A DNA stretch of 63,979 nucleotides, the filler included, from an uncultured bacterium (lineage in GTDB: Bacteria > CAZDME01 > JAYEMH01): NCBI GenBank assembly GCA_964506785.1. It is 5 parts of 5 records of this genome, joined end to end, with 100 filler letters (N's around TTAATTAATTAA, not from the genome) between each part and the next. Parts side by side here need not be neighbours in the genome. Positions count along the whole stretch, not along the records: positions 29,460 to 43,781 come from CAZDME010000035.1; 4 more parts are not named here. One strand, 5' to 3'. Within the stretch, counting starts at the first letter, position 1. Each line of letters starts with the position of its first letter. Shown piece after piece: positions 7,142 to 58,228 of the stretch. The notes beneath the pieces were generated by a model. The model was given only the letters and a program-made list of their open reading frames with translations, did no database searches and was not told the DNA's origin. The position numbers and the translations under genes were made by a program.

Positions 7142-7287
7142 GATAAAGCCCCCAATAGTATCTCCTGGCTCATACTGTCTATATTATAACATTTAAGGCC
7201 AGGTCATTCAAAAAAAATGTTATATTAACGCACTCCCGCTTTCACCCAAAAGATTTAGCCCCGTTATTTCATAAAAATAGCTTTCCT

Positions 7288-7311
7288 AAACGCTATCCGC
7301 TATACGCTAAA
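7288..7311. repeat. Solo heptamer arm (TACGCTA family)
   Basis: cgctatccgctatacgctaaa (7291-7311) is identical to 37945-37965. Confidence 0.8.
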
Positions 7312-7429
7312 AAAAGATGATAATCCCGTATACAAAGGATAATTTTATTGCTATAATAGCTGTGGTCCCAATCCATTCCCCGGCATTCATCTTTTTCTTA
7401 TCAGTTTATACAGCAAAGAGAAAGATATT

Positions 7430-10285: not shown

Positions 10286-10419
10286 ATGATATTAAAATAA
10301 CACATTAAAAAAAAGAAATCAATGGCGAATCCTGTTGTTTTTCACCATTTTTTCTGATATATTAAATTATCGGAATGAAGTTTAAGGGTTACGTAACTCG
10401 AATCGTCAATACGTTTTCA

Positions 10420-10500
10420 AATAATTCAAAATTTACAATATACGTTTCCTAAATTACAAACAAATTATTTGTAATTTGGTAGTTGTGGTTTGGAATTTAA
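10420..10500. repeat. Inverted heptamer arms with no cargo gene (TTACAAA/TTTGTAA family)
   Basis: aaattacaaa (10451-10460) pairs with tttgtaattt (10468-10477); degenerate units extend on both sides. Confidence 0.7.
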
Positions 10501-10549
10501 CATATTCCAGCGTGGCCACCGTTGCCGGTTTACTTTTATTTAAAAAGCT

Positions 10550-14785: not shown

Positions 14786-14885
14786 NNNNNNNNNNNNNNN
14801 NNNNNNNNNNNNNNNNNNNNNNNNNNNNNTTAATTAATTAANNNNNNNNNNNNNNNNNNNNNNNNNNNNNNNNNNNNNNNNNNNN
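14786..14885. other. Artificial contig linker
   Basis: N44-TTAATTAATTAA-N44 (stops in all frames). Confidence 0.99.
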
Positions 14886-29359: not shown

Positions 29360-29459
29360 NNNNNNNNNNNNNNNNNNNNNNNNNNNNNNNNNNNNNNNNN
29401 NNNTTAATTAATTAANNNNNNNNNNNNNNNNNNNNNNNNNNNNNNNNNNNNNNNNNNNN
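29360..29459. other. Artificial contig linker
   Basis: N44-TTAATTAATTAA-N44. Confidence 0.99.
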
Positions 29460-31379: not shown

Positions 31380-31557
31380 CCATCAGCCGCTTTAGCTCAT
31401 CGCTCTTAGCTCATCGCTCTTAGCTTTTTTACATTACACCTAACACATCACACGTTACACAATTACCATGCTTGTCTGCCTCCTCTTTTGGCGGAAGCCA
31501 TTTACCATCAGCCATTAGCTATCAGCCATGAGCCATCAGCCAAAAGCTATGCGCTAA
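31380..31557. repeat. Composite heptamer array (TAGCTCA / TTACACA / CCATCAG families)
   Basis: tagctca-tcgctct x2; ttacacc-taacaca-tcacacg-ttacaca; ccatcag-ccattag-ctatcag-ccatgag-ccatcag; core repeated inverted at 62392-62435. Confidence 0.85.
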
Positions 31558-31646: not shown

Positions 31647-34097
31647 ATGGTTGAAAAACAAAAAGAAAAAATTATTCCGGTAAACATTGAAGATGAAATG
31701 CAGAAGTCATACCTCGATTACGCCATGAGCGTAATTGTTGGCAGGGCGCTCCCCGATGTACGTGATGGCTTAAAACCCGTCCACCGCAGGATTCTTTACG
31801 CTATGTATGATATGGGGATGTTTCACAATAAGCCTTATAAAAAATCCGCCCGCATCGTCGGCGATTGCCTTGGGAAATACCATCCGCATGGAGACGCAGC
31901 CGTTTATGATACCATGGTGCGCTTAGTTCAGGAGTTTGCCTCTCGTTATCCGCTGGTTGACGGGCAGGGGAACTGGGGCTCTATTGACGGCGATGCCGCC
32001 GCGGCCATGCGTTATACCGAGGCAAGGCTGGCATCTTTAAGCGAAGAGATGCTGCGTGATATCGAGAAAGAAACGGTTGATTTTATGCTAAATTTCGACG
32101 AATCGTTAAAGGAGCCGGTGGTTTTACCTTGCAGCTTTCCTAACCTTTTGGTTAACGGCTCTTCGGGTATTGCCGTGGGTATGGCCTGTAATATTCCGCC
32201 GCATAATTTAAGCGAGGTGATTGATGGCCTGGTTTATCTCATTGAAAACCCCGCGGCCAAAGTTGAGGAGTTAATGCTTCATGTCCCTGGGCCGGATTTT
32301 CCTACGGGAGCCTTTATCTTAGGTAATCAGGCGATTAAAACCGCTTATCGAACCGGACGGGGAATTATTAAACTCAGGGCGCGGGCGAATATTGAAAAAA
32401 TAAAAGGGGGAAAAGAAAGCATTGTTATTACTGAGATCCCTTTTCAAGTCAATAAAGCGTCCTTAATTGAATCTATTGCCGGCCTTATTCGGGCCGGAAG
32501 GGTTGAGGGAATTAATAATCTTCGGGATGAATCAGATAAAGACGGAATACGGATTGTTGTTGAATTGAAACGGGACGCTGAGGCGCAGATAGCTCTGAAT
32601 CAGCTGTATAAACACACCCAATTGCAAAGCACTTTTGGCATAATACTACTTGCTCTGGTGCATGGGCAGCCCCGGGTTTTGAATCTTTCCCAGATGATGC
32701 AGCATTTTCTGGATCATCGCCGGATGGTCTTAGTCAGGCGCAGTCAATTTGAACTGCAAGTCGCAGAAAAACGAGCCCATATTCTGGAGGGATTAAAGAT
32801 TGCTCTGAAAAATCTTGATGCGGTAATTAAAACCATTCGCGGCGCTTCCAGTCCTGAGGATGCCCGGGGAAAGTTAATGATTAATTTTAAATTGAGCCTG
32901 ATTCAGACCCAGGCGATACTCGATATGCGCCTGCAGCGTTTGACCAGGTTGGAACGGGATAAAATTGATGCCGAATACCTGGAAGTGATTAAAAATATTG
33001 AGCGGCTCCAGGCGATTCTAGGCAGCGAAAAGAAGGTTTGGGAACTGATTAAAGAGGAACTGCTGGGGATTAAGAAAAAATATGGTGATTCCCGGCGGAC
33101 ACAAATTGTCGAAGAGGAAGAAGAATTAGCCCTGGAGGATTTAATTGCCGAGGAAGATATGGTTATTACCATGAGCCACACCGGATACATTAAGCGGCTT
33201 CCGGTCAGCACTTACCGAAGGCAGGCCCGGGGTGGAAAAGGAGTTACCGGGGCCGGGACCAAAGGGGAGGATTTCATTGAACATTTCTTTATTGCCTCCA
33301 CCCATGACTATATTCTCTTTTTCACCGGCGGCGGCCGGGTTTATTGGGTTAAGGTTTACGAAATTCCTCAGGCCGGGCGGCTTTCCAAAGGCAAGGCAAT
33401 CGTCAATCTTCTCAATATAGGAAGCCAGGAAAGTATTTCGGCGACTATCCCTGTGCGTAAGTTTGACAGTCAGCATTTTTTGGTTATGGCTACCGAAAAA
33501 GGGATTATCAAAAAAACTAATTTAGAAGCCTATGGCCACCCGCGCAAAGGCGGGATTGCCGCCATAAAAATAGATTCGGGAGACAAAGTAGTCAATGTAA
33601 TTTTAACCAACGGCAAAGAGCAAATTCTTCTGGCCACCCGCCAAGGGAAAGCTATTCGTTTTTCCGAAAAAGATGTTCGGGCCATTTCCAGGACAGCCCG
33701 GGGAGTAAAAGGAATAAAATTGGGAAAAGACGATAAAGTGGTCGGGATGAAAATTGCCCGGGAAGAGGCGTCTCTTCTTACGGTAACCAACCGCGGCTAT
33801 GGAAAAAGGAGTAAATTTGGAGATTATCGCCTGCAGAGCCGGGGAGGCAGCGGGGTGATTAATATTAAGGCTATTGAGCGTAAAGGGTTTGTCATTGGTG
33901 TCGAATCGGTTCAAAATGAAGATGAGGTGATGATTATTTCCAGCCACGGGATGATTATCCGTATCCCCATCAAAGCGATTCGGGTTATGGGCCGCAGCAC
34001 CCAGGGGGTGCGGCTCATTAGTTTAAAAGCAGATGACCAGGTCAGGGCGATTGCTCCGGTAGTTAGTGAGGAAAAAAGCATCAATGCCGAGTTATGA
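31647..34097 (+). CDS. gyrA: DNA gyrase subunit A
   Basis: [29 protein letters not shown], GyrA-box QARGGKG, beta-pinwheel C-terminal domain. Confidence 0.98.
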
Positions 34098-34515
34098 AAT
34101 TATTTCTCATACGGCTGATATTGGCCTGCGTGTTTTTGGCCGGGATTTAGCGGAGTTTTTTTCTAATGCGGCCGATGGAATGTTTCATCTGATGGTTGAA
34201 AATGTAAAAGGGGTGAAACACCGGGAGACAGTTGAGGTGAATCTCTCCGGTTTAAGCCAGGAGGAGCTCTTAGTTAGCTGGTTAAGCGAACTTCTTTATA
34301 AGCTGACGGAGAAACACTGGCTGGGGATAGAAACGGAAATTTTTTCTCTTGAGAAAAAAGGGGATAAGTTTTTTTTGCGGGCCAAAGTTCAAGGGCAAAA
34401 GATTGATTATACAAAAACCCCGCCCAAGAGAGAAATTAAAGCAGTTACCTACCACAACTTAGCCATAAAAAAAGTAGAAAGCGGCTATTCAACCGAGATT
34501 ATTTTCGATGTCTAA
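34084..34515 (+). CDS. Archease
   Basis: [26 protein letters not shown]-terminal IFDV; ATG 34084 overlaps the gyrA end. Confidence 0.93.
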
Positions 34516-34559
34516 ACACCCAAAATCTTCACACTTCGTAAGTGTGATAATTTGAGTGT
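34516..34559. repeat. REP-like palindrome, copy 1
   Basis: TCACACTT-CGT-AAGTGTGA core (34529-34547) with imperfect outer arms. Confidence 0.85.
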
Positions 34560-34571
34560 AAGGAGGGTTGG

Positions 34572-35978
34572 GTGAAAAGGGTATTTTTAATTGTTACGGT
34601 CATGGTCTTAGGGTTCATAATAGCCTCGGACGGACGAGCCCAAGAGAAATCCCAGGAGATAGGCCTAACCGTTTATAATCAGAATTCAGCTCTGGTTAAA
34701 GACAGCCGGGTGATACTTTTCAAAAAAGGATTAAACCTGATTACTTTAGAAGAGGTGGCTGTTCTTATTGACCCCGCCAGCGTTCATTTCAAGACCCTTG
34801 GCGCTCCGGAGGCCTTTTCTGTGCGGGAGCAAAAATATGAATATGACCTCTTAGACGGGAACAAACTTCTGCAAAGATATATCGACCAGAAAATCCGGGT
34901 GCAGACTAAAGACGGGAAAACCTATGAAGGGTTTCTTTTAAGCTTTGATGAGGGACAGATTATTCTGGGTGGTGATAAGAAAACCGGGCCTTTTAATCTT
35001 ATTCAGCGGGATGAAAATATTCAAACGATTCTTTTTCCGGTGCTTCCGGAAGGTTTAATTACTAAACCAACCCTGGCCTGGGAGATAATGGCGAAGCAGC
35101 CCGGAGAACAAATTGTTGAAGTTTCTTATTTCACCCAGGGGGTTAACTGGGAGGCGGATTATGTGGCTGTAGTAAATGAGGATGATACCAAACTGGATTT
35201 ATCCGGCTGGGTGAGTATTGATAACCGCAGTGGGAAAGCATACAAAAACGCCAGACTTAAATTAGTCGCCGGGGAAATACACCTGGCCAAAGAGAGGCCT
35301 CTTCTAGCCTTCAGGAGGGAGCTTAAGGAGGCAATGGTAGACGAAGAAGGTTTTAAGGAAGCGCCTTTTTTTGAATATCATTTGTATACTTTGCCGCGCC
35401 TAATTACCCTCAAGGATAATCAAACCAAGCAAATTACTCTTTTATCAGCGACAGATACAGCGGTGAAAAAACTTTATGTGTTTGATGTTTCTAATCCCTA
35501 TGGATGGCTCATTGCCGGAAGCAGGAAAAAGATAAATGTCAACTTAGAGCTGGAGAATAAAAAAGAACTTGGCCTGGGTATGTCTCTGCCCAAAGGAAAG
35601 GTGCGGGTTTATAAAGCAGACCAGGAAGGGAGCCTCCAGTTGATCGGCGAGGATTTAATCGAGCATACCCCCACGAATGAAAGCATCCGCCTCTATGTAG
35701 GTGATGCTTTTGACCTGGTCGGAGAAAGGAGGCACTTAAAGACAGAGCGGGTCAGTCAGCGGATGCAGGACGATACTTATGAAATCAAACTGCGCAACCA
35801 TAAACAAAGTGATGTAGGTATTATTGTTGTCGAACATATTCCCCGGGGGCGAGAATGGCGGATAACCAAAACTTCGCATGATTACCTCAAGAAAGATGCT
35901 TACACCATAGAATTTAAAGTGGATGTTGGTAAGGGGCATGAGACGATAATTACCTATACAGTGAGAAGCCGCTGGTAA
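34572..35978 (+). CDS. Exported DUF4139-domain protein
   Basis: Signal peptide; LTVYNQNSALVKD, W.ADY, YKNARLKLVAG, LPKGKVRVY. Confidence 0.85.
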   Translation: MKRVFLIVTVMVLGFIIASDGRAQEKSQEIGLTVYNQNSALVKDSRVILFKKGLNLITLEEVAVLIDPASVHFKTLGAPEAFSVREQKYEYDLLDGNKLLQRYIDQKIRVQTKDGKTYEGFLLSFDEGQIILGGDKKTGPFNLIQRDENIQTILFPVLPEGLITKPTLAWEIMAKQPGEQIVEVSYFTQGVNWEADYVAVVNEDDTKLDLSGWVSIDNRSGKAYKNARLKLVAGEIHLAKERPLLAFRRELKEAMVDEEGFKEAPFFEYHLYTLPRLITLKDNQTKQITLLSATDTAVKKLYVFDVSNPYGWLIAGSRKKINVNLELENKKELGLGMSLPKGKVRVYKADQEGSLQLIGEDLIEHTPTNESIRLYVGDAFDLVGERRHLKTERVSQRMQDDTYEIKLRNHKQSDVGIIVVEHIPRGREWRITKTSHDYLKKDAYTIEFKVDVGKGHETIITYTVRSRW

Positions 35979-36061
35979 AAAAACAACCAATAGCCGCAAC
36001 ACCAGAGAACATATTGTTAGTTTACAGGCTACAAAGCTTGTTAGGGCCGTGAGGGGGATAT

Positions 36062-37519
36062 ATGGCTGACGGCTGGCAGGGGAAATTAGAGAGAATAGAC
36101 GATTACCGTTGGAGAATACCGCAGGATTATAAGCCGGGGATGCGTGTCCCCGGCCTTATTTATGCCGACGAGAAATTGCTGGGAAAAATTCTCCAGGATA
36201 AAAGTCCGGAGCAGGTGGCTAATGTTGCCTGCCTTCCCGGAATTGTTAAGGCCTCAATGGCCATGCCCGATATGCACTGGGGCTATGGTTTTTGCATCGG
36301 CGGAGTGGCCGCTTTTCGTCTCGCCGACGGTATCATTTCACCCGGCGGAGTCGGGTATGACATAAATTGCGGCGTCAGGTTAGTCAAAACCAATCTATTC
36401 AAGGATGAAGTCAGGGCTAAATTGAAGATGCTCGTCGAAGGGCTCTTTTATCAGATTCCTGCCGGCGTTGGTTCTGAGGGGCGGATAAGACTTTCTCCTC
36501 AAGAAGAAGAGGATGTAATGGTTAAAGGCTCGGCCTGGGCGGTTTCTCGAGGCTATGGCTGGAAGGAAGATTTAGAAGCTACGGAGGATGAAGGTTTCAT
36601 CCCCGGGGCCGATCCCGGCAGGGTCAGCGCCCGGGCTAAAGAAAGAGGAGCAAGCCAGCAGGGGACTTTGGGGTCCGGCAACCATTTTTTAGAAATTCAG
36701 TTCGTGGAAGAAATTTTTGATGAGGAGTTAGCTTCTATCTTTGATTTACAAAAGGGGCAGGTTACTTTTATGATTCACTGCGGTTCCCGCGGTTTTGGGC
36801 ATCAAATCTGTGATGACTATCTCCACCGGATGATGTCCGCGGCCAATAAATACGGCCTTAATCTTCCCGACCGTCAATTAGCCTGTGCCCCGGTAAATTC
36901 TAAAGAAGGGGAGGATTACCTGGCGGCTATGGCCTGTGCCGCCAATTACGCCTGGGCTAACCGGCAATGTATTATGCATTGGTCCCGGGGGGTATTTGAG
37001 CAAGTATTTAAACGGGCCGCCCGGGATTTAGGGCTGGAATTAATTTATGATGTCTGCCATAATATAGCTAAGGTTGAAGAGCACCTTGTTGATGGGGAAA
37101 AAATGAAGCTGTGTATCCATCGTAAAGGTGCCACCCGCGCCTTTGGACCGAATCATCCTCTGGTTCCCGAGAAATATCGGAGCATTGGCCAGCCGGTAAT
37201 TATTCCCGGAGATATGGGCCGGGCGTCCTATCTTTTAGCCGGAACGGAAGGGGCGATGAAGGAAACGTTTGGCTCAACCTGCCACGGTGCCGGCAGGTTA
37301 ATGAGCCGAAAGGAGGCTACCCGTAAATTTCCCGTAGCCGATTTAGACAGGGAACTTTCCAATCGCCGGGTTATGGTCCGGGCGAAATCACGCCGGACTT
37401 TATCTGAAGAAGCTCCGGGGGCTTATAAAAATGTCAATGATGTCATTAATGTCGTCACCCAGGTGGGGATTTCAAAGAAAGTGGCCAAGATGAAACCGAT
37501 GGGAGTGATTAAAGGATAG
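36062..37519 (+). CDS. rtcB: RNA ligase RtcB (long, archaeal-like type)
   Basis: MPDMHWGYGF, GYDINCG, GTLGSGNHFLE, HCGSRG, HRKGATRA, STCHGAGR, EEAPGAYK. Confidence 0.97.
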   Translation: MADGWQGKLERIDDYRWRIPQDYKPGMRVPGLIYADEKLLGKILQDKSPEQVANVACLPGIVKASMAMPDMHWGYGFCIGGVAAFRLADGIISPGGVGYDINCGVRLVKTNLFKDEVRAKLKMLVEGLFYQIPAGVGSEGRIRLSPQEEEDVMVKGSAWAVSRGYGWKEDLEATEDEGFIPGADPGRVSARAKERGASQQGTLGSGNHFLEIQFVEEIFDEELASIFDLQKGQVTFMIHCGSRGFGHQICDDYLHRMMSAANKYGLNLPDRQLACAPVNSKEGEDYLAAMACAANYAWANRQCIMHWSRGVFEQVFKRAARDLGLELIYDVCHNIAKVEEHLVDGEKMKLCIHRKGATRAFGPNHPLVPEKYRSIGQPVIIPGDMGRASYLLAGTEGAMKETFGSTCHGAGRLMSRKEATRKFPVADLDRELSNRRVMVRAKSRRTLSEEAPGAYKNVNDVINVVTQVGISKKVAKMKPMGVIKG

Positions 37520-37527
37520 CTATAGAG

Positions 37528-37590
37528 TAGCGTGTAGCGTATAGGGAATCGCATATAGGGGAAAAAACAGCGAAAATAGCGTATAGGAAA
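37528..37590 (+). repeat. Left heptamer arm (TAGCGTA)n
   Basis: tagcgtg-tagcgta-tagggaa-tcgcata-tagggga-...-tagcgta-taggaaa in a 7-nt register. Confidence 0.85.
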
Positions 37591-37943
37591 TGGTGAAGAC
37601 AGGAAGCTTTAAAGACTTAATTGTCTGGCAGAAAGCTTATAAGTTAGTGTTAGAAACGTATAAAGCGACTAGAGATTTTCCCAAACATGAGGTTTATGGG
37701 TTATCACAGCCAACGAGAAGAGCCGCAGTTTCTATTCCTTCAAACATAGCCGAGGGTTATAGCCGGAGGAACAAGGGAGAATATATACATTTTTTATCTT
37801 TAGCATATAGTTCTTTAGCAGAGTTGGAGACTCAATATTTATTATCAAAAGATTTAAAATATTTAAAAAAGAATGATATCGTCAAAGGTTTATTGGGGGA
37901 AATCGGGAGAATATTGTATCGTCTAATGCATCCTATACGCTAA
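37590..37943 (+). CDS. Four-helix-bundle protein (23S rRNA-IVP/Avd-like)
   Basis: [41 protein letters not shown]. Confidence 0.93.
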
Positions 37944-37963
37944 GCGCTATCCGCTATACGCTA
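37929..37963 (-). repeat. Right heptamer arm (TACGCTA)n, inverted relative to the left arm
   Basis: catccta-tacgcta-agcgcta-tccgcta-tacgcta; 37931-37942 is the exact reverse complement of 37577-37588. Confidence 0.88.
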
Positions 37964-37974
37964 AAGGAGAAATT

Positions 37975-39261
37975 ATGCTTGATTTGAAATTTATCCGGGA
38001 GAATGTCGAAAAGGTTAAGCAGGCAATTAAAGATAAGAAGGAAAAGGTGAATTTAGATGAGATTTTGAAGTTAGATGAAGAACGGCGCAAAATAATCAGC
38101 CAGGCGGAGAAATTAAGAAACGAGAAAAACGTTGCTTCCCGGGAAATTGGCCGGATGATGCAGAAGAAAGCCAGGCCGCAGGCGAAAATAGCCGAGATGA
38201 AAAAGCTGGCTGAAAAAATTAAATCTTTAAATGATAAATTAGTGAAAAATGAAAATAAATTGAAGGCCTTGCTTTTAACCGTTCCCAATGTTCCTCATTC
38301 CTCGGTGCCCGTTGGCCCCGGGGCCGATGCTAACAAAGTAGTCAAAAGCTGGGGGGAGCCCCGCCGGTTTGATTTTAAACCAGTGACCCATCTAAACTTA
38401 ACTGATTCTTTAGGGATTATTGATTTTGCCCGGGGAACGAAGATTACCGGGCGGGCATTTCCCCTTTATATAGGGGCAGGGGCCACCTTAGAGCGGGCGC
38501 TGATAAATTTTATGTTGGATTTACATACCCAAAAGCATGGGTATACCGAGGTTTTTCCTCCCTATATTGTTAATCGGGAGAGTATGATTAATACCGGCCA
38601 GCTTCCAAAGTTAGAGGATGATATGTACCGCCTCCATCGGGATGACTATTTTCTTATTCCGACCGCCGAGGTGCCGCTGACCAATATTCACCGGGATGAA
38701 ATTCTTGAAGAAGATACTTTGCCGCGTTACTATACGGCTTATACGGCTTGTTTCCGCCGGGAGGCCGGTTCTTACGGGAAAAATACGGTCGGGCTTACCC
38801 GAGTGCACCAGTTTAACAAAGTTGAATTGGTTAAATTTGTTAAACCAGAAAATTCGTATGAGGAATTGGAAAAACTTTTAGCCGATGCCGAGGAAATTAT
38901 CCAGCTTTTAGAACTGCCTTACCGCGTTTCTTTATTATCGACCGGAGATTTAAGTTTTGCCGGAACAAAATGTTATGATATTGAGGTTTGGGCTCCGGGG
39001 CTGGAGAGGTATTTAGAAATTTCTTCCTGCAGTAACTTTGAGGATTTTCAATCCCGCCGGGCAAACATAAAATTTAGACGGGCAACGGCCGACGGGCAGC
39101 GGAAAACGGAATATGTTCATACCCTCAATGGCTCGGGTGTCGCTCTGGCCCGCACGGTGATTGCCCTGATAGAGCAGTATCAAAATAAAGACGGTTCTAT
39201 AAACATTCCCGAAATCCTCAGGCCCTATATGGGTGGGTTGGGGAAGATTGGAAAAAGATAG
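37975..39261 (+). CDS. serS: Serine--tRNA ligase
   Basis: [10 protein letters not shown] coiled arm, [38 protein letters not shown]. Confidence 0.98.
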
Positions 39262-39339
39262 AGAAAGCGAAAGTTTATTAAAGATTTTTCGCCCAAAAAG
39301 GGTGGGCTCAAAACCCAAAAATTTATAAAGAAAATTTTT

Positions 39340-39427
39340 GGAGGAGTGGCTGAGTGGCTTAAAGCGGCGGTCTTGAAAACCGTTATCCTGCAAAGGATCA
39401 GGGGTTCAAATCCTCTCTCCTCCGCCA
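39340..39427 (+). tRNA. tRNA-Ser(TGA)
   Basis: GGAGGAG acceptor, GCGGT-CTTGAAA-ACCGT, long variable arm, GCCA end. Confidence 0.95.
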
Positions 39428-39542
39428 ATTTATTGTTTGAAATCGCTTTTGTAAGTAGCTTTGTAGCAGGGGACAAGGGCATGCCCTTTTTTTGAGAGAA
39501 AGCGGGAAGTTTCGCGGGTATAATTGCTTACAGGAAAATGGG

Positions 39543-41180
39543 TTAAACAGGGAAGGAGTCTTGCCTGTAGATTACTTTCTTAATTATCGGCCGTAATTTT
39601 TTAAATACCTCAAGATACTCTATTCTTTCCAGGCGAAGCTTACGGCAAAGTTTTTCCCGCTCATCTGCGGAGTAAAATTGCTTTAAATTAAATAGATTCG
39701 GTCTTACCCCTTCTACTTTTTTGGGAATAAGCGTGCCAAAATCAGGTTCTTTAACCCATTCAATGGTGTCTCTGACAATGCCGCGGATGATGCTGGCCAT
39801 CTCATCGACCTGAATCCTGGTAACCGGGCGGATAATTTTCAGGGTGCCATCCGGGTTTCTTCGGGAGATTTCCCCAATACCGCCGGTATTTAAGAGGTAA
39901 CACTGTATTTTATCTTCGTTGGCTTTGATAAATTCATAGAACCTGTTTCCTTCCTCTGCCTCACAGCCGACAATAAAAGGGTTGGTGCCTACTACCCGCA
40001 CAGATTTGCCCGCCCGGGTGGGATCGCTGGCGGCGGTTTCAATGGATTCTCCCAGCATAAAGAAAGCGGCGGCTTGTTCCGGAGTAAGTTTTGAAGCAAT
40101 GGGTTGGACGGTATTGCGGCGAGTAATAAAAGCAATTATCAGGCCGTCGGTTTTACTTATTGGGGGTAAATTAACCGTTTTGGCGCAGGCTTTACCCAAA
40201 TCAGTCCGCTGGATTATTCCCCGGCCATTCCCGGTTAAGGTTTCATCTTCAAAGGAAACCCGGCCAACGGAATCAATCATCACATTTTCAAAAACGGCTT
40301 CTTTTTTCGTCGCCGCTTTATAAAGCAAAGGTTGTTCGGTGGGATGGAGAGAATCAGTTTTAACAAAAAATCCTTTCTCTGTTCCCAATGCCGAACCATC
40401 CAAACGGATGAAGACAACGTCATCTTGAACGATACTTACTTTTTCGCCGGGTCTATCTAAATTATGATTATGGCAGGAATGAGTAGTTTTCCCTGTAGCA
40501 GTTAGGCCAAAAAGAACCATGCTGTATTGGCGCATTTTACCTTGCTGGTCCCTGGCCTGAATGAGTTTTGCCCCGGCATGGACAGCCAGCATACCAGCTT
40601 TTTTAGCATACCACATAGCCATTCGCAAAAAGCCTTTTTTTACTTCTCCATAATAATCTGTTCCTAATATATAAGTTAGCCCCTGATTAGGGAAGACCAA
40701 AATCTGTCTATCTTTTTCATGCCATTCAGGAATATAGATTAATTTGAGGTCAGGGCCTTTAGTCTTTTTGCCGGTGAAGAGGCTTTTTGACCACATATAG
40801 GGGAGTCTGACTGCATCTTTCCGCTGGGTAGAAATGTATAAATTACACTTCGGGGTGAACAAGGGATTCTTTCCCATTATTCTCTGGACATGAATCATTG
40901 GAGCTTTGGGAAGGTAGGCCGCCAATTGTTTGAGTGTAGCCGGAGCATTTTGAATTAATTGCTTTTGTTTGTCAGACCAGCCTTTCCAGGGTTCCCAGTC
41001 AACCCCTAAGACCACGGTTAAGGCGGCACTGCGGTTGCGAACGACACTAAAGAAAGCGTAGTTACCCCATTGGGTCTTGTGACCAATTTGTTCGGCCATT
41101 TGACGCAATTTAGCATCACTGGGTGTGGTAACGTTGGCTGCCCGGGGCCACTGTTTAACTACATCAGGATTTCTAACCAT
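39543..41180 (-). CDS. pckA: Phosphoenolpyruvate carboxykinase (ATP), divergent type
   Basis: GTDYYGEVKKG, HAGAK, FGLTATGKTT, QDD, E.GFFVKT, LLNTG. Confidence 0.87.
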   Translation of the reverse strand: MVRNPDVVKQWPRAANVTTPSDAKLRQMAEQIGHKTQWGNYAFFSVVRNRSAALTVVLGVDWEPWKGWSDKQKQLIQNAPATLKQLAAYLPKAPMIHVQRIMGKNPLFTPKCNLYISTQRKDAVRLPYMWSKSLFTGKKTKGPDLKLIYIPEWHEKDRQILVFPNQGLTYILGTDYYGEVKKGFLRMAMWYAKKAGMLAVHAGAKLIQARDQQGKMRQYSMVLFGLTATGKTTHSCHNHNLDRPGEKVSIVQDDVVFIRLDGSALGTEKGFFVKTDSLHPTEQPLLYKAATKKEAVFENVMIDSVGRVSFEDETLTGNGRGIIQRTDLGKACAKTVNLPPISKTDGLIIAFITRRNTVQPIASKLTPEQAAAFFMLGESIETAASDPTRAGKSVRVVGTNPFIVGCEAEEGNRFYEFIKANEDKIQCYLLNTGGIGEISRRNPDGTLKIIRPVTRIQVDEMASIIRGIVRDTIEWVKEPDFGTLIPKKVEGVRPNLFNLKQFYSADEREKLCRKLRLERIEYLEVFKKLRPIIKKVIYRQDSFPV

Positions 41181-41341
41181 AAAATTTTTCTCCCTGCTAG
41201 ATTACGCTTCCAATTATATCACAAGCAGGTTGTATTATGCAATAGCAATTAAAACAATTTCTGACAGGACGCTTTTTATCCTCAGGATTAGGTTTATTTA
41301 AGCTCAATTATGGAAAGGGAGAAAAATTATCTGGCCCTTCC

Positions 41342-41370
41342 TTGATTTCCAGATAAATTTATGATATAGT
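41342..41370 (+). promoter_or_regulatory. sigma70-type promoter of the tRNA-tadA unit
   Basis: TTGATT-17 bp-TATAGT with extended TG, 14 bp upstream of the tRNA. Confidence 0.6.
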
Positions 41371-41384
41371 AAAGCTGGAAATAC

Positions 41385-41473
41385 GGAGAGGTACCGAAGC
41401 GGTTATAACGGGGACGACTCGAAATCGTCTTGGCTGAAAAGTCACGGGGGTTCGAATCCCTCCCTCTCCGCCA
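41385..41473 (+). tRNA. tRNA-Ser(CGA)
   Basis: GACGA-CTCGAAA-TCGTC, long variable arm, CCA. Confidence 0.95.
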
Positions 41474-41513
41474 ATTTGTATATCGGTTGCTTTCGGGCTA
41501 TTGAATGAAATGT

Positions 41514-41590
41514 GTGCCTGTAGCTCAGTTGGATAGAGCACTGGTCTACGAAACCAGTTGTCGGGCGTTCGAGCCGCCCCAGGCACGCCA
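41514..41590 (+). tRNA. tRNA-Arg(ACG)
   Basis: CTGGT-CTACGAA-ACCAG, CCA. Confidence 0.95.
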
Positions 41591-41659
41591 ATTTATAGTT
41601 TCAGAGAGGCAGTCAGAAACTCAAAGTGTATTTTTAAAAACGGTGAACGTTGATAGATA

Positions 41660-42118
41660 ATGGAGATTTCTCAAACTAAATTTATGAAAGAGGCACTGAA
41701 AGAAGCAGGTAAATGTTCTATTGATGAAGATATTCCTGTTGGTGCGGTAGTAATTCTTGACGGAAAAATAATTGGCCGGGGGTATAATCAGCGGGAGAAG
41801 AACCACGATCCCACCGGACATGCAGAAATAGTTGCTATGCGTCAGGCGGCGAAACATTTGGGAACTTGGAGGCTGAATAGGGCAAGTCTTTATACTACTT
41901 TTGAGCCCTGCCCGATGTGTGCCGGAGCGATGGTTCAAGCCCGGATAAAAAATCTATTTTTTGGTCTCAAAAACTTGAAAGCCGGAGCGGCGGGTACGGT
42001 AATGAATTTAACCGGCTCTAAAAAATTTAATCATCGTCTCAAGGTAAAAGGTGGAATATTTGAAGAAGAATCCCGAAGATTGATTAAAGATTTTTTTAAA
42101 AAACTTCGAGGCAAATAG
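41660..42118 (+). CDS. tadA: tRNA adenosine(34) deaminase
   Basis: PVGAV, DPTGHAE, EPCPMCAGA, FF..LR. Confidence 0.95.
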   Translation: MEISQTKFMKEALKEAGKCSIDEDIPVGAVVILDGKIIGRGYNQREKNHDPTGHAEIVAMRQAAKHLGTWRLNRASLYTTFEPCPMCAGAMVQARIKNLFFGLKNLKAGAAGTVMNLTGSKKFNHRLKVKGGIFEEESRRLIKDFFKKLRGK

Positions 42119-43781: not shown

Positions 43782-43881
43782 NNNNNNNNNNNNNNNNNNN
43801 NNNNNNNNNNNNNNNNNNNNNNNNNTTAATTAATTAANNNNNNNNNNNNNNNNNNNNNNNNNNNNNNNNNNNNNNNNNNNN
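43782..43881. other. Artificial contig linker
   Basis: N44-TTAATTAATTAA-N44. Confidence 0.99.
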
Positions 43882-56983: not shown

Positions 56984-56994
56984 AATTCTTTTTT

Positions 56995-57050
56995 AAACTT
57001 ACAATAAACAACTTCCAAATTACAACCAATACACAAAATCAAATATCCAA
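56995..57050. repeat. Heptamer arm (CAAATTA family), downstream of the four-helix remnant
   Basis: caaattacaa (57016-57025) is the reverse complement of ttgtaatttg (57256-57265). Confidence 0.7.
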
Positions 57051-57064
57051 GAAAAAATTATAGA

Positions 57065-57245
57065 CTATCTGCTTTTCTCGATAATAGAAATAAATATATT
57101 CCGTAATTCTTGAGACTCTTGAATAAAACCATCAATTTCTTTTGCGAATGGATAGTTGGCTTCTTTGAGAAGTTTTAACCAATAACTGCTTTCTTTACAC
57201 TCTTTCCTTGAAATTTTCATCTGGTTTGTCTTGGCCTTTGTTCAT
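57065..57245 (-). pseudogene. Internally deleted four-helix-bundle gene
   Basis: 57220-57065 encodes MKISRKECKESSYWLKLLKEANYPFAKEIDGFIQESQELRNIFISIIEKSR*, the family C-terminal half; an out-of-frame ATG lies at 57245. Confidence 0.8.
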
Positions 57246-57272
57246 TGTATACTGTTTGTAATTTGTAATTTT
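57246..57272. repeat. Heptamer arm (TTTGTAA)2, upstream of the four-helix remnant
   Basis: tttgtaa-tttgtaa-tttt abutting the stop of the lsrF-like gene. Confidence 0.7.
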
Positions 57273-58058
57273 CTATCTATTATTTTCTTTAAATATATTT
57301 TCTGCTTCTTTGACACTGGCTTTTTTATGGACAATTGCCCGCAGGGCTTTGGCCATAGCTACCGGATGAACGTTTTGCCAGACATTCCTTCCCAGATTGA
57401 TACCGATGGCCCCTTTTTGCATGCCGTCGTGAACAAATTGAAAAACCTCAGCTTCAGTTTTACATTTTGGCCCCCCGGCGACGATAACCGGAATGGGACA
57501 GCCTTCTATTACCTTCTCAAAGTCTTCACACCAATAGGTTTTAACCACCCGGGCGCCGAGCTCGGCGGCAATCCGGCAGCATAAAGCCAGATAACGGGCA
57601 TCTCGTTTTTCCATCTCTTTACCCACGGCCGTAACCGCCATTACCGGGATGCCGTAATTTTCGCAGTCATTAACCATTTTTGCTAAATTCAAAAGTGTCT
57701 GCCGCTCATAGTCACTACCGATAAAAACGGATACCCCTACTGCCGAGACGTTAAGACGGATAATTTCTTCAATTGAGGTGGTAAGCGCTTCATTGGCCAA
57801 GTCCTTTCCCACCATACTGGTGCCGCCGGACACCCGTAAAACAATGGGTTTACTTTTGACCGCATCGATACAGGAACGCAGCACCCCCCTGGTGCAAAAA
57901 AGGGCGTCAACATAAGGAAGAAGCGGCTTTATTGTCTCACCCGGCTTTTCTAATGATCGGGTGGGCCCCTGGAAATATCCGTGGTCGATGGGCATAAAAA
58001 AACAACGCCCGCCCGGTATAAGTTTACTCAGTCTATTTTTCATTCCCCAATCCATCAC
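57273..58058 (-). CDS. lsrF: LsrF-like class I aldolase/thiolase
   Basis: MDWGMKNRL, DHGYFQGP, AAELGA..VKTY, AGGPK, GRNVWQ. Confidence 0.85.
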   Translation of the reverse strand: MMDWGMKNRLSKLIPGGRCFFMPIDHGYFQGPTRSLEKPGETIKPLLPYVDALFCTRGVLRSCIDAVKSKPIVLRVSGGTSMVGKDLANEALTTSIEEIIRLNVSAVGVSVFIGSDYERQTLLNLAKMVNDCENYGIPVMAVTAVGKEMEKRDARYLALCCRIAAELGARVVKTYWCEDFEKVIEGCPIPVIVAGGPKCKTEAEVFQFVHDGMQKGAIGINLGRNVWQNVHPVAMAKALRAIVHKKASVKEAENIFKENNR

Positions 58059-58128: not shown

Positions 58129-58228
58129 NNNNNNNNNNNNNNNNNNNNNNNNNNNNNNNNNNNNNNNNNNNNTTAATTAATTAANNNNNNNNNNNNNNNN
58201 NNNNNNNNNNNNNNNNNNNNNNNNNNNN
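58129..58228. other. Artificial contig linker
   Basis: N44-TTAATTAATTAA-N44. Confidence 0.99.

Follow-up and report, generated by a model that had tools for sequence, protein, structure and literature searches.

Between rtcB and serS, the window analysed here (63,979 nucleotides, the whole stretch above) holds a gene for a 117-amino-acid four-helix-bundle protein framed by two arrays of a seven-letter word, direct before it and inverted behind it, which raises the question of whether arms and gene form one unit, whether that unit moves, and by what means. An earlier note on this DNA had proposed a cassette that inserts at operon junctions and whose arms pair in the messenger RNA (mRNA). The window joins five contigs (C33, C34, C35, C36, and C70) of one genome (G000; 1.38 Mb, 91% complete) through N spacers at 14786–14885, 29360–29459, 43782–43881, and 58129–58228, so that features on separate pieces are not neighbours; the cassette lies on C35 (Table 1). 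Two genomes of the same family, G001 and G002, were used for comparison, all three being 88–91% complete.

The protein is a member of the TIGR02436/PF05635 family, with profile scores of 108.3 bits (cut-off 24) and 117.5 (cut-off 33.8), respectively. Its predicted structure has four helices (pLDDT 94) and superposes on XCC0516 (2GSC), a pentamer, at TM 0.84–0.89 and rmsd 1.3–1.7, with BT_0352 and Avd among the more distant matches; by analogy with the five chains of 2GSC, it would assemble as a five-membered ring, as do its relatives of known structure (PMC4990558). The open reading frame (ORF) shares the + strand with rtcB and serS, and the right arm encodes its final codons (H-P-I-R-stop) and ends just short of the serS ribosome-binding site, AAGGAG. 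Nothing above shuffles indicated a promoter or terminator inside the cassette, and a search of C35 against Rfam returned 4 tRNAs only; the cassette does not lie inside any rRNA gene.

The arms are not a chance arrangement. Positions 37577–37588 are the exact reverse complement of 37931–37942 (12 bp, with no further extension of the match), and the left arm keeps its 7-nt register over nine slots, two of which (37563–37576) are degenerate. Identity at a lag of 7 was 0.49 upstream (reached by 3 of 10,000 shuffles) and 0.66 downstream (0 of 10,000). The predicted arm-to-arm duplex had an energy of −40.3 kcal/mol, against −22.1 ± 3.8 for dinucleotide shuffles (0 of 1000 as low), with about 29 expected pairs and a pairing probability of 0.86–0.99 in the folded transcript. 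The bare word TAGCGTA was not enriched in the window (7 matches vs 3.9 expected; 8 of 100 shuffles reached 7), the signal being its clustering and not its frequency. Thus the layout described in the earlier note, a gene between inverted heptamer arms with a perfect 12-bp match at its start and stop codons and a register of about 63 bp, was borne out by the ORF, the profile scores, and the shuffles.

We then asked how often inverted arms of three or more units surround a gene. In G000, they were found at one of the 1119 called genes with full flanks, the window's gene; two other intact copies of the family in G000 failed this strict test, one of them with arms evident by eye. Among relatives of the protein (80 from named genomes plus the window's gene, 3 of the 81 loci excluded for short flanks), inverted arms occurred at period 7 in 31 of 78 and at period 8 in 14 of 78, and in none of the 78 at periods 5, 6, 9, and 10; arms in direct orientation were seen once in 78, and inverted arms at other genes of the same loci in 0 of 47. 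A second set, of metagenome and viral loci, gave 39/77 (10 of 87 excluded). In a sample of 61 genomes, 11 of the 24 best family hits, which were not picked by likeness to the window's protein, passed the test; the rate was 18/600 for mismatched pairs and 3/24 for arms in direct orientation. The comparison with control genes that the earlier note had asked for therefore found the arms specific to four-helix genes. Variant layouts were also observed: in a subfamily of proteins starting F-x-F-E-K/N-L (L003, L040, L041, L043, and L048), the two arm orientations are both found upstream of the gene, where they make up a local hairpin, and a right arm may or may not follow downstream as well; a truncated family gene of G000 (L004, contig C37) has inverted arms of period 6.

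Cassettes occupy a precise position in their operons. The first word of the left arm lay a median of 4 nt past the upstream stop codon (10 nt or less in 69/104) and the last word of the right arm a median of 16 nt before the next start, while neighbours were co-oriented with the cassette gene in 62 of 68 and 61 of 73 cases. The unit moves between such operon junctions of stop codon and ribosome-binding site, and between phyla. In G001, rtcB and serS are adjacent without the gene, their gap holding a solo array of a different word from the stop codon onwards, plus a palindrome (G002 has an assembly gap at this place); the junction is thus gene-less in a relative, and synteny of the gene is not kept. 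Genes for the proteins most like the window's (60–68% identical) were found at junctions unrelated to this one, in Atribacterota, Planctomycetota, and Omnitrophota. When gene pairs with at least 80% DNA identity were compared (n = 86), both neighbours differed in 39 and were shared in 14, and in 25 one neighbour differed, the other being unknown. Atribacterota copies that are 89–95% identical occupy six or more junctions; asnS, dnaK, dnaJ, and clpX are our probable names for genes there, given from their translations. Thirteen cassette sites of G001 and G002 gave eight that could be matched in G000, where three were without clear arms (one a clean overlap of stop and start), three were gene-less with another word, and two had a truncated gene with the same word, one of them the copy near 57065. 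Taken together, these data make it very probable that the cassette is mobile and support the earlier proposal of a unit of arms plus gene that inserts at operon junctions and decays there.

The gene is under purifying selection. Across 11 near-identical Atribacterota copies, dN was 0.045 and dS 0.317 (dN/dS 0.14), with dN below dS in 55 of 55 pairs; such a ratio among hopping copies means that the protein is kept functional while moving. Relatives were found on 7 IMG/VR contigs and in 28 plasmid records, mostly cyanobacterial, and 50,697 phage records gave no match. On three Nostoc plasmids (L351, L352, and L353), the cassette is preceded by a tyrosine recombinase gene in one case, where the heptamer arms are full, and by transposase genes in the other two, where only the right arm is left.

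Comparison of single junctions revealed turnover of their content. The mraY–ftsW gap (both genes present in 27 of 30 loci) measured 51–673 bp in 14 close Atribacterota species, two of which carried an intact cassette; the others had a solo arm, pairs without a gene, or arms of several families nested in one another. Five distant species had plain gaps of 46–69 bp. The same pattern was seen at two further junctions, where arm families are exchanged between outer borders that stay fixed; the gene was present in 3/11 and 2/18. In one species (L248), the last 60 columns of mraY were 74% identical to its sisters, against 93–100% elsewhere, and 84% identical to L244, with which it shares the start of the arm; in addition, the last 14 codons of mraY were more diverged (0.755) than those of the arm-free ftsW (0.929). 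We regard replacement of the upstream gene's tail as a lead only, which would fit replacement from a single-stranded donor. In that single case, the replaced segment (1–60 nt before the stop) starts right after an arm-like word inside the host gene. At another junction (5-formyl-THF cyclo-ligase to rpsA, L277–L285), the host gene's last codons and stop belong to the left arm, which starts within that gene, and a swap of arms there therefore alters the C-terminus of the host protein.

Loss of the gene is frequent; what remains, gene-less pairs or solo arms, is far commoner than the gene and varies in length by whole units. Of 52 genomes of one Atribacterota order, 30 had AGCG arrays, with as many as 234 matches, and 22 had none; the eight genomes with a cognate AGCG-clade gene all belonged to the 30. 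Arm matches per Atribacterota genome numbered 41–66 against one close gene. Intergenic arrays in G000 numbered about 103 at period 7, compared with 0–38 at periods 4–6 and 8–12, and fell into at least eight word families above shuffles, against six family gene matches, three of them truncated. Most arrays were single (64/89); of these 64, 50 had their G-rich sequence on the sense strand (background 240/413) and 34 started within 15 nt of a stop codon. Other sequenced strains have two of the arrays upstream of gyrA in a form shorter by two units (14 nt).

Since the window is made of five joined contigs, the two further sites that the earlier note had assigned to this cassette, at 57065 and 10420, are not on its contig. 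The first does hold a truncated gene (match at 57071–57244, − strand, profile positions 50–108 only), but with arms of another family, AAATTAC, and G002 has an intact gene with AAATTAC arms at the same junction. The second, taken for an empty copy, is instead a gene-less pair of the AAATTAC family between divergent genes and not at an operon junction (z −2.4 on the + strand and −0.3 on the −). The full life cycle read from these sites thus mixed two repeat families on three contigs, but such a cycle is visible across related genomes. Two kinds of short element accompany the arms. An array of the TGTAATG type, about 40 bp long with conserved ends, occurs in about a dozen G000 copies (e.g. 31431–31466), often stacked with arrays of other families, and looks like a recently spread gene-less arm. 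Short GC-rich palindromes, similar to REP elements, share junctions with arms (L008, the rtcB–serS gap of G001; L243, L244, L290, and L302), and Y1 transposases occur in genomes that carry them.

Table 1 Features of the cassette locus and of related sites in the window.
Feature	Coordinates	Strand	Remark
rtcB, upstream host gene	36062..37519	+	Stop codon 37517–37519 abuts the left arm
Left arm, degenerate (TAGCGTA)n	37520..37589	+	Register 37528–37590; from 8 nt past the rtcB stop to the cassette start codon
Four-helix-bundle gene, 117 aa, TIGR02436/PF05635	37590..37943	+	
Right arm, (TACGCTA)n	37929..37963	+	Five units; reverse complement of the left arm
serS, downstream host gene	37975..39261	+	
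Decayed cassette, AAATTAC arms	56990..57275	-	5' half of gene deleted; different contig from C35
Gene-less inverted pair, AAATTAC family	10415..10505	.	Between divergent genes; different contig from C35
Solo array of the window cassette's AGCG family	7284..7313	.	Different contig from C35
Three gene-less heptamer arrays, other families, upstream of gyrA	31388..31542	.	

Word and period of the repeats go with the protein lineage, each lineage having its own. On a protein tree of 81 rows, the arm period changed 4 times, compared with 22.7 for shuffled labels; this tree has few columns and many open forks, and clustering by itself does not show co-evolution. The window's protein falls in a starred clade of 19 rows (99/91), 16 of which have period-7 arms of AGCG or AGGG, from Atribacterota, Planctomycetota, and Omnitrophota, and a separate starred clade of 20 rows contains 17 octamer rows. 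Fourfold-degenerate sites of 12 AGCG-clade genes agreed with those of the window's gene at a level of only 0.15–0.46, near saturation, yet the non-coding word and its register persist in this clade; something therefore holds the word fixed within a protein lineage, and recognition by the protein of its own word would be the simplest cause. Residue 4 tracks the word (Thr in 34/36 AGCG rows and 0/23 AGGG rows).

No general target-site duplication was found: the longest word shared by the outer ends averaged 4.14 for own and 4.08 for crossed pairs (p = 0.55, 126 cassettes), in a test weakened by decayed ends. The outer ends of the window's cassette do share a 7-mer, a length that 2% of crossed pairs reach. 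No transposase lies within the unit (the genome search for transposases covered Y1 only), and no reverse transcriptase was found among the ORFs of 33000–42000.

To account for these observations, we propose a promoterless selfish cassette of about 450 bp, consisting of a left arm, one four-helix-bundle gene, and a right arm. The pentamer would bind the repeated word (AGCG every 7 nt, usually 2–4 units per arm) and so hold both ends together. The arms would act as the ends of the element, and their role would lie more in the words they offer to the protein than in a finely tuned RNA helix. Strand exchange would be carried out by a host or trans-acting enzyme and not by the cassette; the most likely route would be replacement of the junction from a single-stranded copy, because there is no regular target duplication, the outer borders are fixed, and arm families are swapped in place. 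Expression would be supplied by read-through transcription, which would explain the co-orientation with host genes, and pairing of the arms in the mRNA would put the upstream stop beside the downstream ribosome-binding site, making the insert cheap. For the mechanism as a whole, a selfish cassette whose pentamer is predicted to read its own word and which a host or trans enzyme moves, we see about even chances.

Several observations weigh against this explanation. The linkage between word and protein could be explained as plain physical linkage, and residue 4 was rejected as a specificity residue since its association is phylogenetically confounded (one independent pair on starred branches, four on the best tree). 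Own arms matched better than crossed arms of the same family (AGCG, 18.0 vs 16.2; p = 0.03, n = 32, with kin that are not independent), so that pairing or mutual copying of the arms has some role. A replaced upstream tail was seen at one of three junctions, the second showing nothing and the third not being comparable, and 22 of the 30 array-bearing Atribacterota genomes, whose assemblies are incomplete, gave no cognate gene. As for enzymes, RVT_1 (PF00078) had 0 matches in G000, G001, and G002, and Y1 transposases, present in 5/5 genomes tested (2 matches in G000), were unlinked to cassettes. No contig skips the cassette among the joints listed (15 of 70) in four DNA runs, a result that has no bearing on expression: runs X2 and X5 bridge it whole, X2 being perhaps the source, and in X3 and X4, among the pieces listed, the long contigs break off at 37871 and 37862, respectively, and resume at 37960. 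Finally, position 41 of the window's protein, in helix 2, is Pro, a residue that none of 158 scored relatives has at this site, 154 of them carrying Gln; this copy may thus be starting to decay.

The pairing of the arms invites another explanation, modelled on rRNA intervening sequences (IVSs), in which the arms would pair in the operon mRNA, RNase III would cut the stem, the Avd-like pentamer would bind the freed RNA, and a borrowed reverse transcriptase would copy it, with integration as in the retrohoming of diversity-generating retroelements (DGRs). Such a route would draw on the strong predicted pairing in the folded transcript, the presence of rnc, the co-orientation of cassette genes with their neighbours, the one filled site with a replaced 3' tail of the upstream gene, and the precedent of the Coxiella IVS, which encodes the same protein family (S23p) and is described as having heptamers before its ORF and a 28-bp terminal stem cut by RNase III (PMC4990558). 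However, the opposite-strand arm duplex (−40.6 kcal/mol) matches that of the sense strand, the sense strand had no energy advantage across arm sets (14/32, 17/25, 27/50, and 2/7), and mismatches in aligned arms were without G-U bias (86 G-U vs 89 A-C, odds ratio 1.15, p = 0.41; 215 transversions). The mRNA pairing put forward in the earlier note, with the gene looped out like an IVS, is therefore possible by prediction but, being equal on both strands and without G-U preference, not supported. That the G-rich arm comes first in 63 of 71 cassettes was dropped as evidence for RNA, since an inverted pair is identical when read on either strand. Moreover, the three genomes gave no match to a reverse transcriptase, cutting without ligation would presumably split the rtcB–serS transcript, and most G000 arrays are single, all of which leaves this route unlikely.

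The abundance of arrays suggests, in turn, that the arms might be the selfish unit, STRR- or REP-like repeats that would spread through slippage, conversion, or a Y1/HUH transposase acting in trans, with the gene as a passenger. The excess of arrays over genes in G000 and in Atribacterota, the unit-length slippage between strains, and the Y1 transposases in every genome tested are all in line with it; captured genes of other kinds would then be expected, yet arms were found at 0/1118 other G000 genes and at none of the 47 controls. This reading also sits poorly with a word that follows the protein tree across phyla, with purifying selection on the hopping protein, and with arrays confined to lineages of the cognate protein (seen once, for AGCG in one order), and we judge it improbable. 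We give still less credence to a domesticated host regulator, whose pentamer would bind many arrays in mRNA, in the manner of TRAP on triplet repeats, and tune termination or translational coupling, movement being secondary. The sense-strand G-richness of the single arrays, their starts close to stop codons, the presence of rho, and the proposal of the TAACTGA repeats as regulatory sites (PMC4679880) accord with regulation, but close species hold entirely different content at one junction, the gene is not tied to any one locus, half of its six G000 copies are truncated, and the array words belong to many families. The selfish cassette with a word-reading pentamer thus remains our preferred explanation.

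How does it compare with known elements? MITEs, or miniature inverted-repeat transposable elements, and insertion sequences have terminal inverted repeats (TIRs) and gene-less copies that far outnumber genes. The cassette likewise has inverted ends and occurs in autonomous-looking and gene-less forms, the latter in the majority; unlike these elements, its ends are degenerate tandem words and not discrete TIRs, there is no transposase in the unit and no regular target-site duplication, and it is strongly co-oriented with host genes. Avd (4DWL, 8UB7) has the same fold as the cassette protein (TM 0.72–0.74) and is described as kin to PF05635 (PMC10053308), as a pentamer without catalytic function itself that associates with structured nucleic acid (bioRxiv 10.1101/2023.10.23.563531, PMC10053308), and as binding an RNA stem-loop whose bases insert between protomers (bioRxiv 10.1101/2023.10.23.563531). 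The cassette protein nevertheless failed the Avd equivalog model (33.9 vs a cut-off of 80 bits), and this score, together with the lack of a linked reverse transcriptase and of any in the genome search, rules out a DGR.

ORF-bearing 23S rRNA IVSs (S23p; Coxiella burnetii, Leptospira) share with the cassette the protein family, a similar length (428–444 nt), complementary termini, and heptamers ahead of the start codon, whose copy number varies between strains, in the description of PMC4990558. They sit in an rRNA helix, whereas the cassette sits at a junction of a protein operon, and they are described there as vertically kept with a decaying ORF, whereas the cassette gene hops under purifying selection; the cassette is thus IVS-like in layout but not an IVS by location. 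PF05635 ORFs are reported in 16S and 23S insertions of CPR bacteria (bioRxiv 10.1101/2024.02.27.582315), and the passages on the family in PMC10910872, PMC8700078, and that preprint merely mention it. The GGGAATC repeats of Xanthomonas and Nostoc resemble the arms in being degenerate period-7 arrays with a G-rich arm a few nt past the stop and often an inverted partner before the next start; one of them, repeat 15, lies 6 nt past bccP and runs into the start of XCC0516, whose protein has the structure 2GSC, a link that the paper leaves unnamed (PMC4692102). These arrays are described as quadruplex-prone simple repeats, whereas the cassette word AGCG is without G-runs, and the main text of that paper contains neither "four helix" nor "intervening"; its table gives no partner arm for repeat 15. 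TAACTGA repeats (Beggiatoaceae, Cyanobacteria, Bacteroidetes) are intergenic heptamer arrays that abut start codons, like solo right arms; the text of PMC4679880 and one supplement describe horizontal spread without giving a mechanism and hold no tie to a four-helix gene. The cassette itself belongs with the heptamer repeats, its arms being intergenic degenerate period-7 arrays in many G000 copies. Literature searches, weighted to open-access main texts, found no paper that joins the gene to inverted heptamer arms outside rRNA; the parts are known separately, as rRNA IVSs and heptamer repeats.

The RtcB neighbourhood looks incidental. Archease, DUF4139, and rtcB form a gene run at 34066–37519, and the order DUF4139–rtcB–serS is kept in G001 and G002, but a match to the 117-aa protein was found at one of 30 rtcB loci, the window's own, and RtcB was dropped as a candidate ligase partner. 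In one other genome (G046, contig C82), rtcB matches fall in three pieces within one open frame of 1416 aa, which probably contains an intein. The GxxExxY family had 0 matches in G000. Another genome (G019) gave 19 weak TIGR02436 matches; many of them stand head to head in close pairs, one on each strand, and probably represent a different element.

The cassette may, more tentatively, represent a class of minimal mobile elements, each made of a small pentameric protein and two arms of a 7- or 8-nt word recognised per lineage, which together with host enzymes would suffice to target stop/start junctions in operons that are transcribed and to mobilise gene-less arm pairs. ORF-bearing rRNA IVSs would then represent insertions of such elements into rRNA, Avd would be a member that was domesticated, and the GGGAATC, TAACTGA, and STRR repeats (the last being cyanobacterial) would be footprints; we hold this generalisation to be possible, at somewhat less than even chances. 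The finding links three separately published and unexplained things: the function of TIGR02436, a very large protein family, the spread of rRNA IVSs, and the abundance of intergenic heptamers. If the protein does recognise its own word, the natural variants of protein and word would constitute a recognition code, and possibly a system for insertion targeted to junctions. At the least, heptamer repeats need no longer be read as locus-specific regulators, and a cassette that leaves its repeats behind may explain the long-puzzling seven-letter repeats of bacteria.
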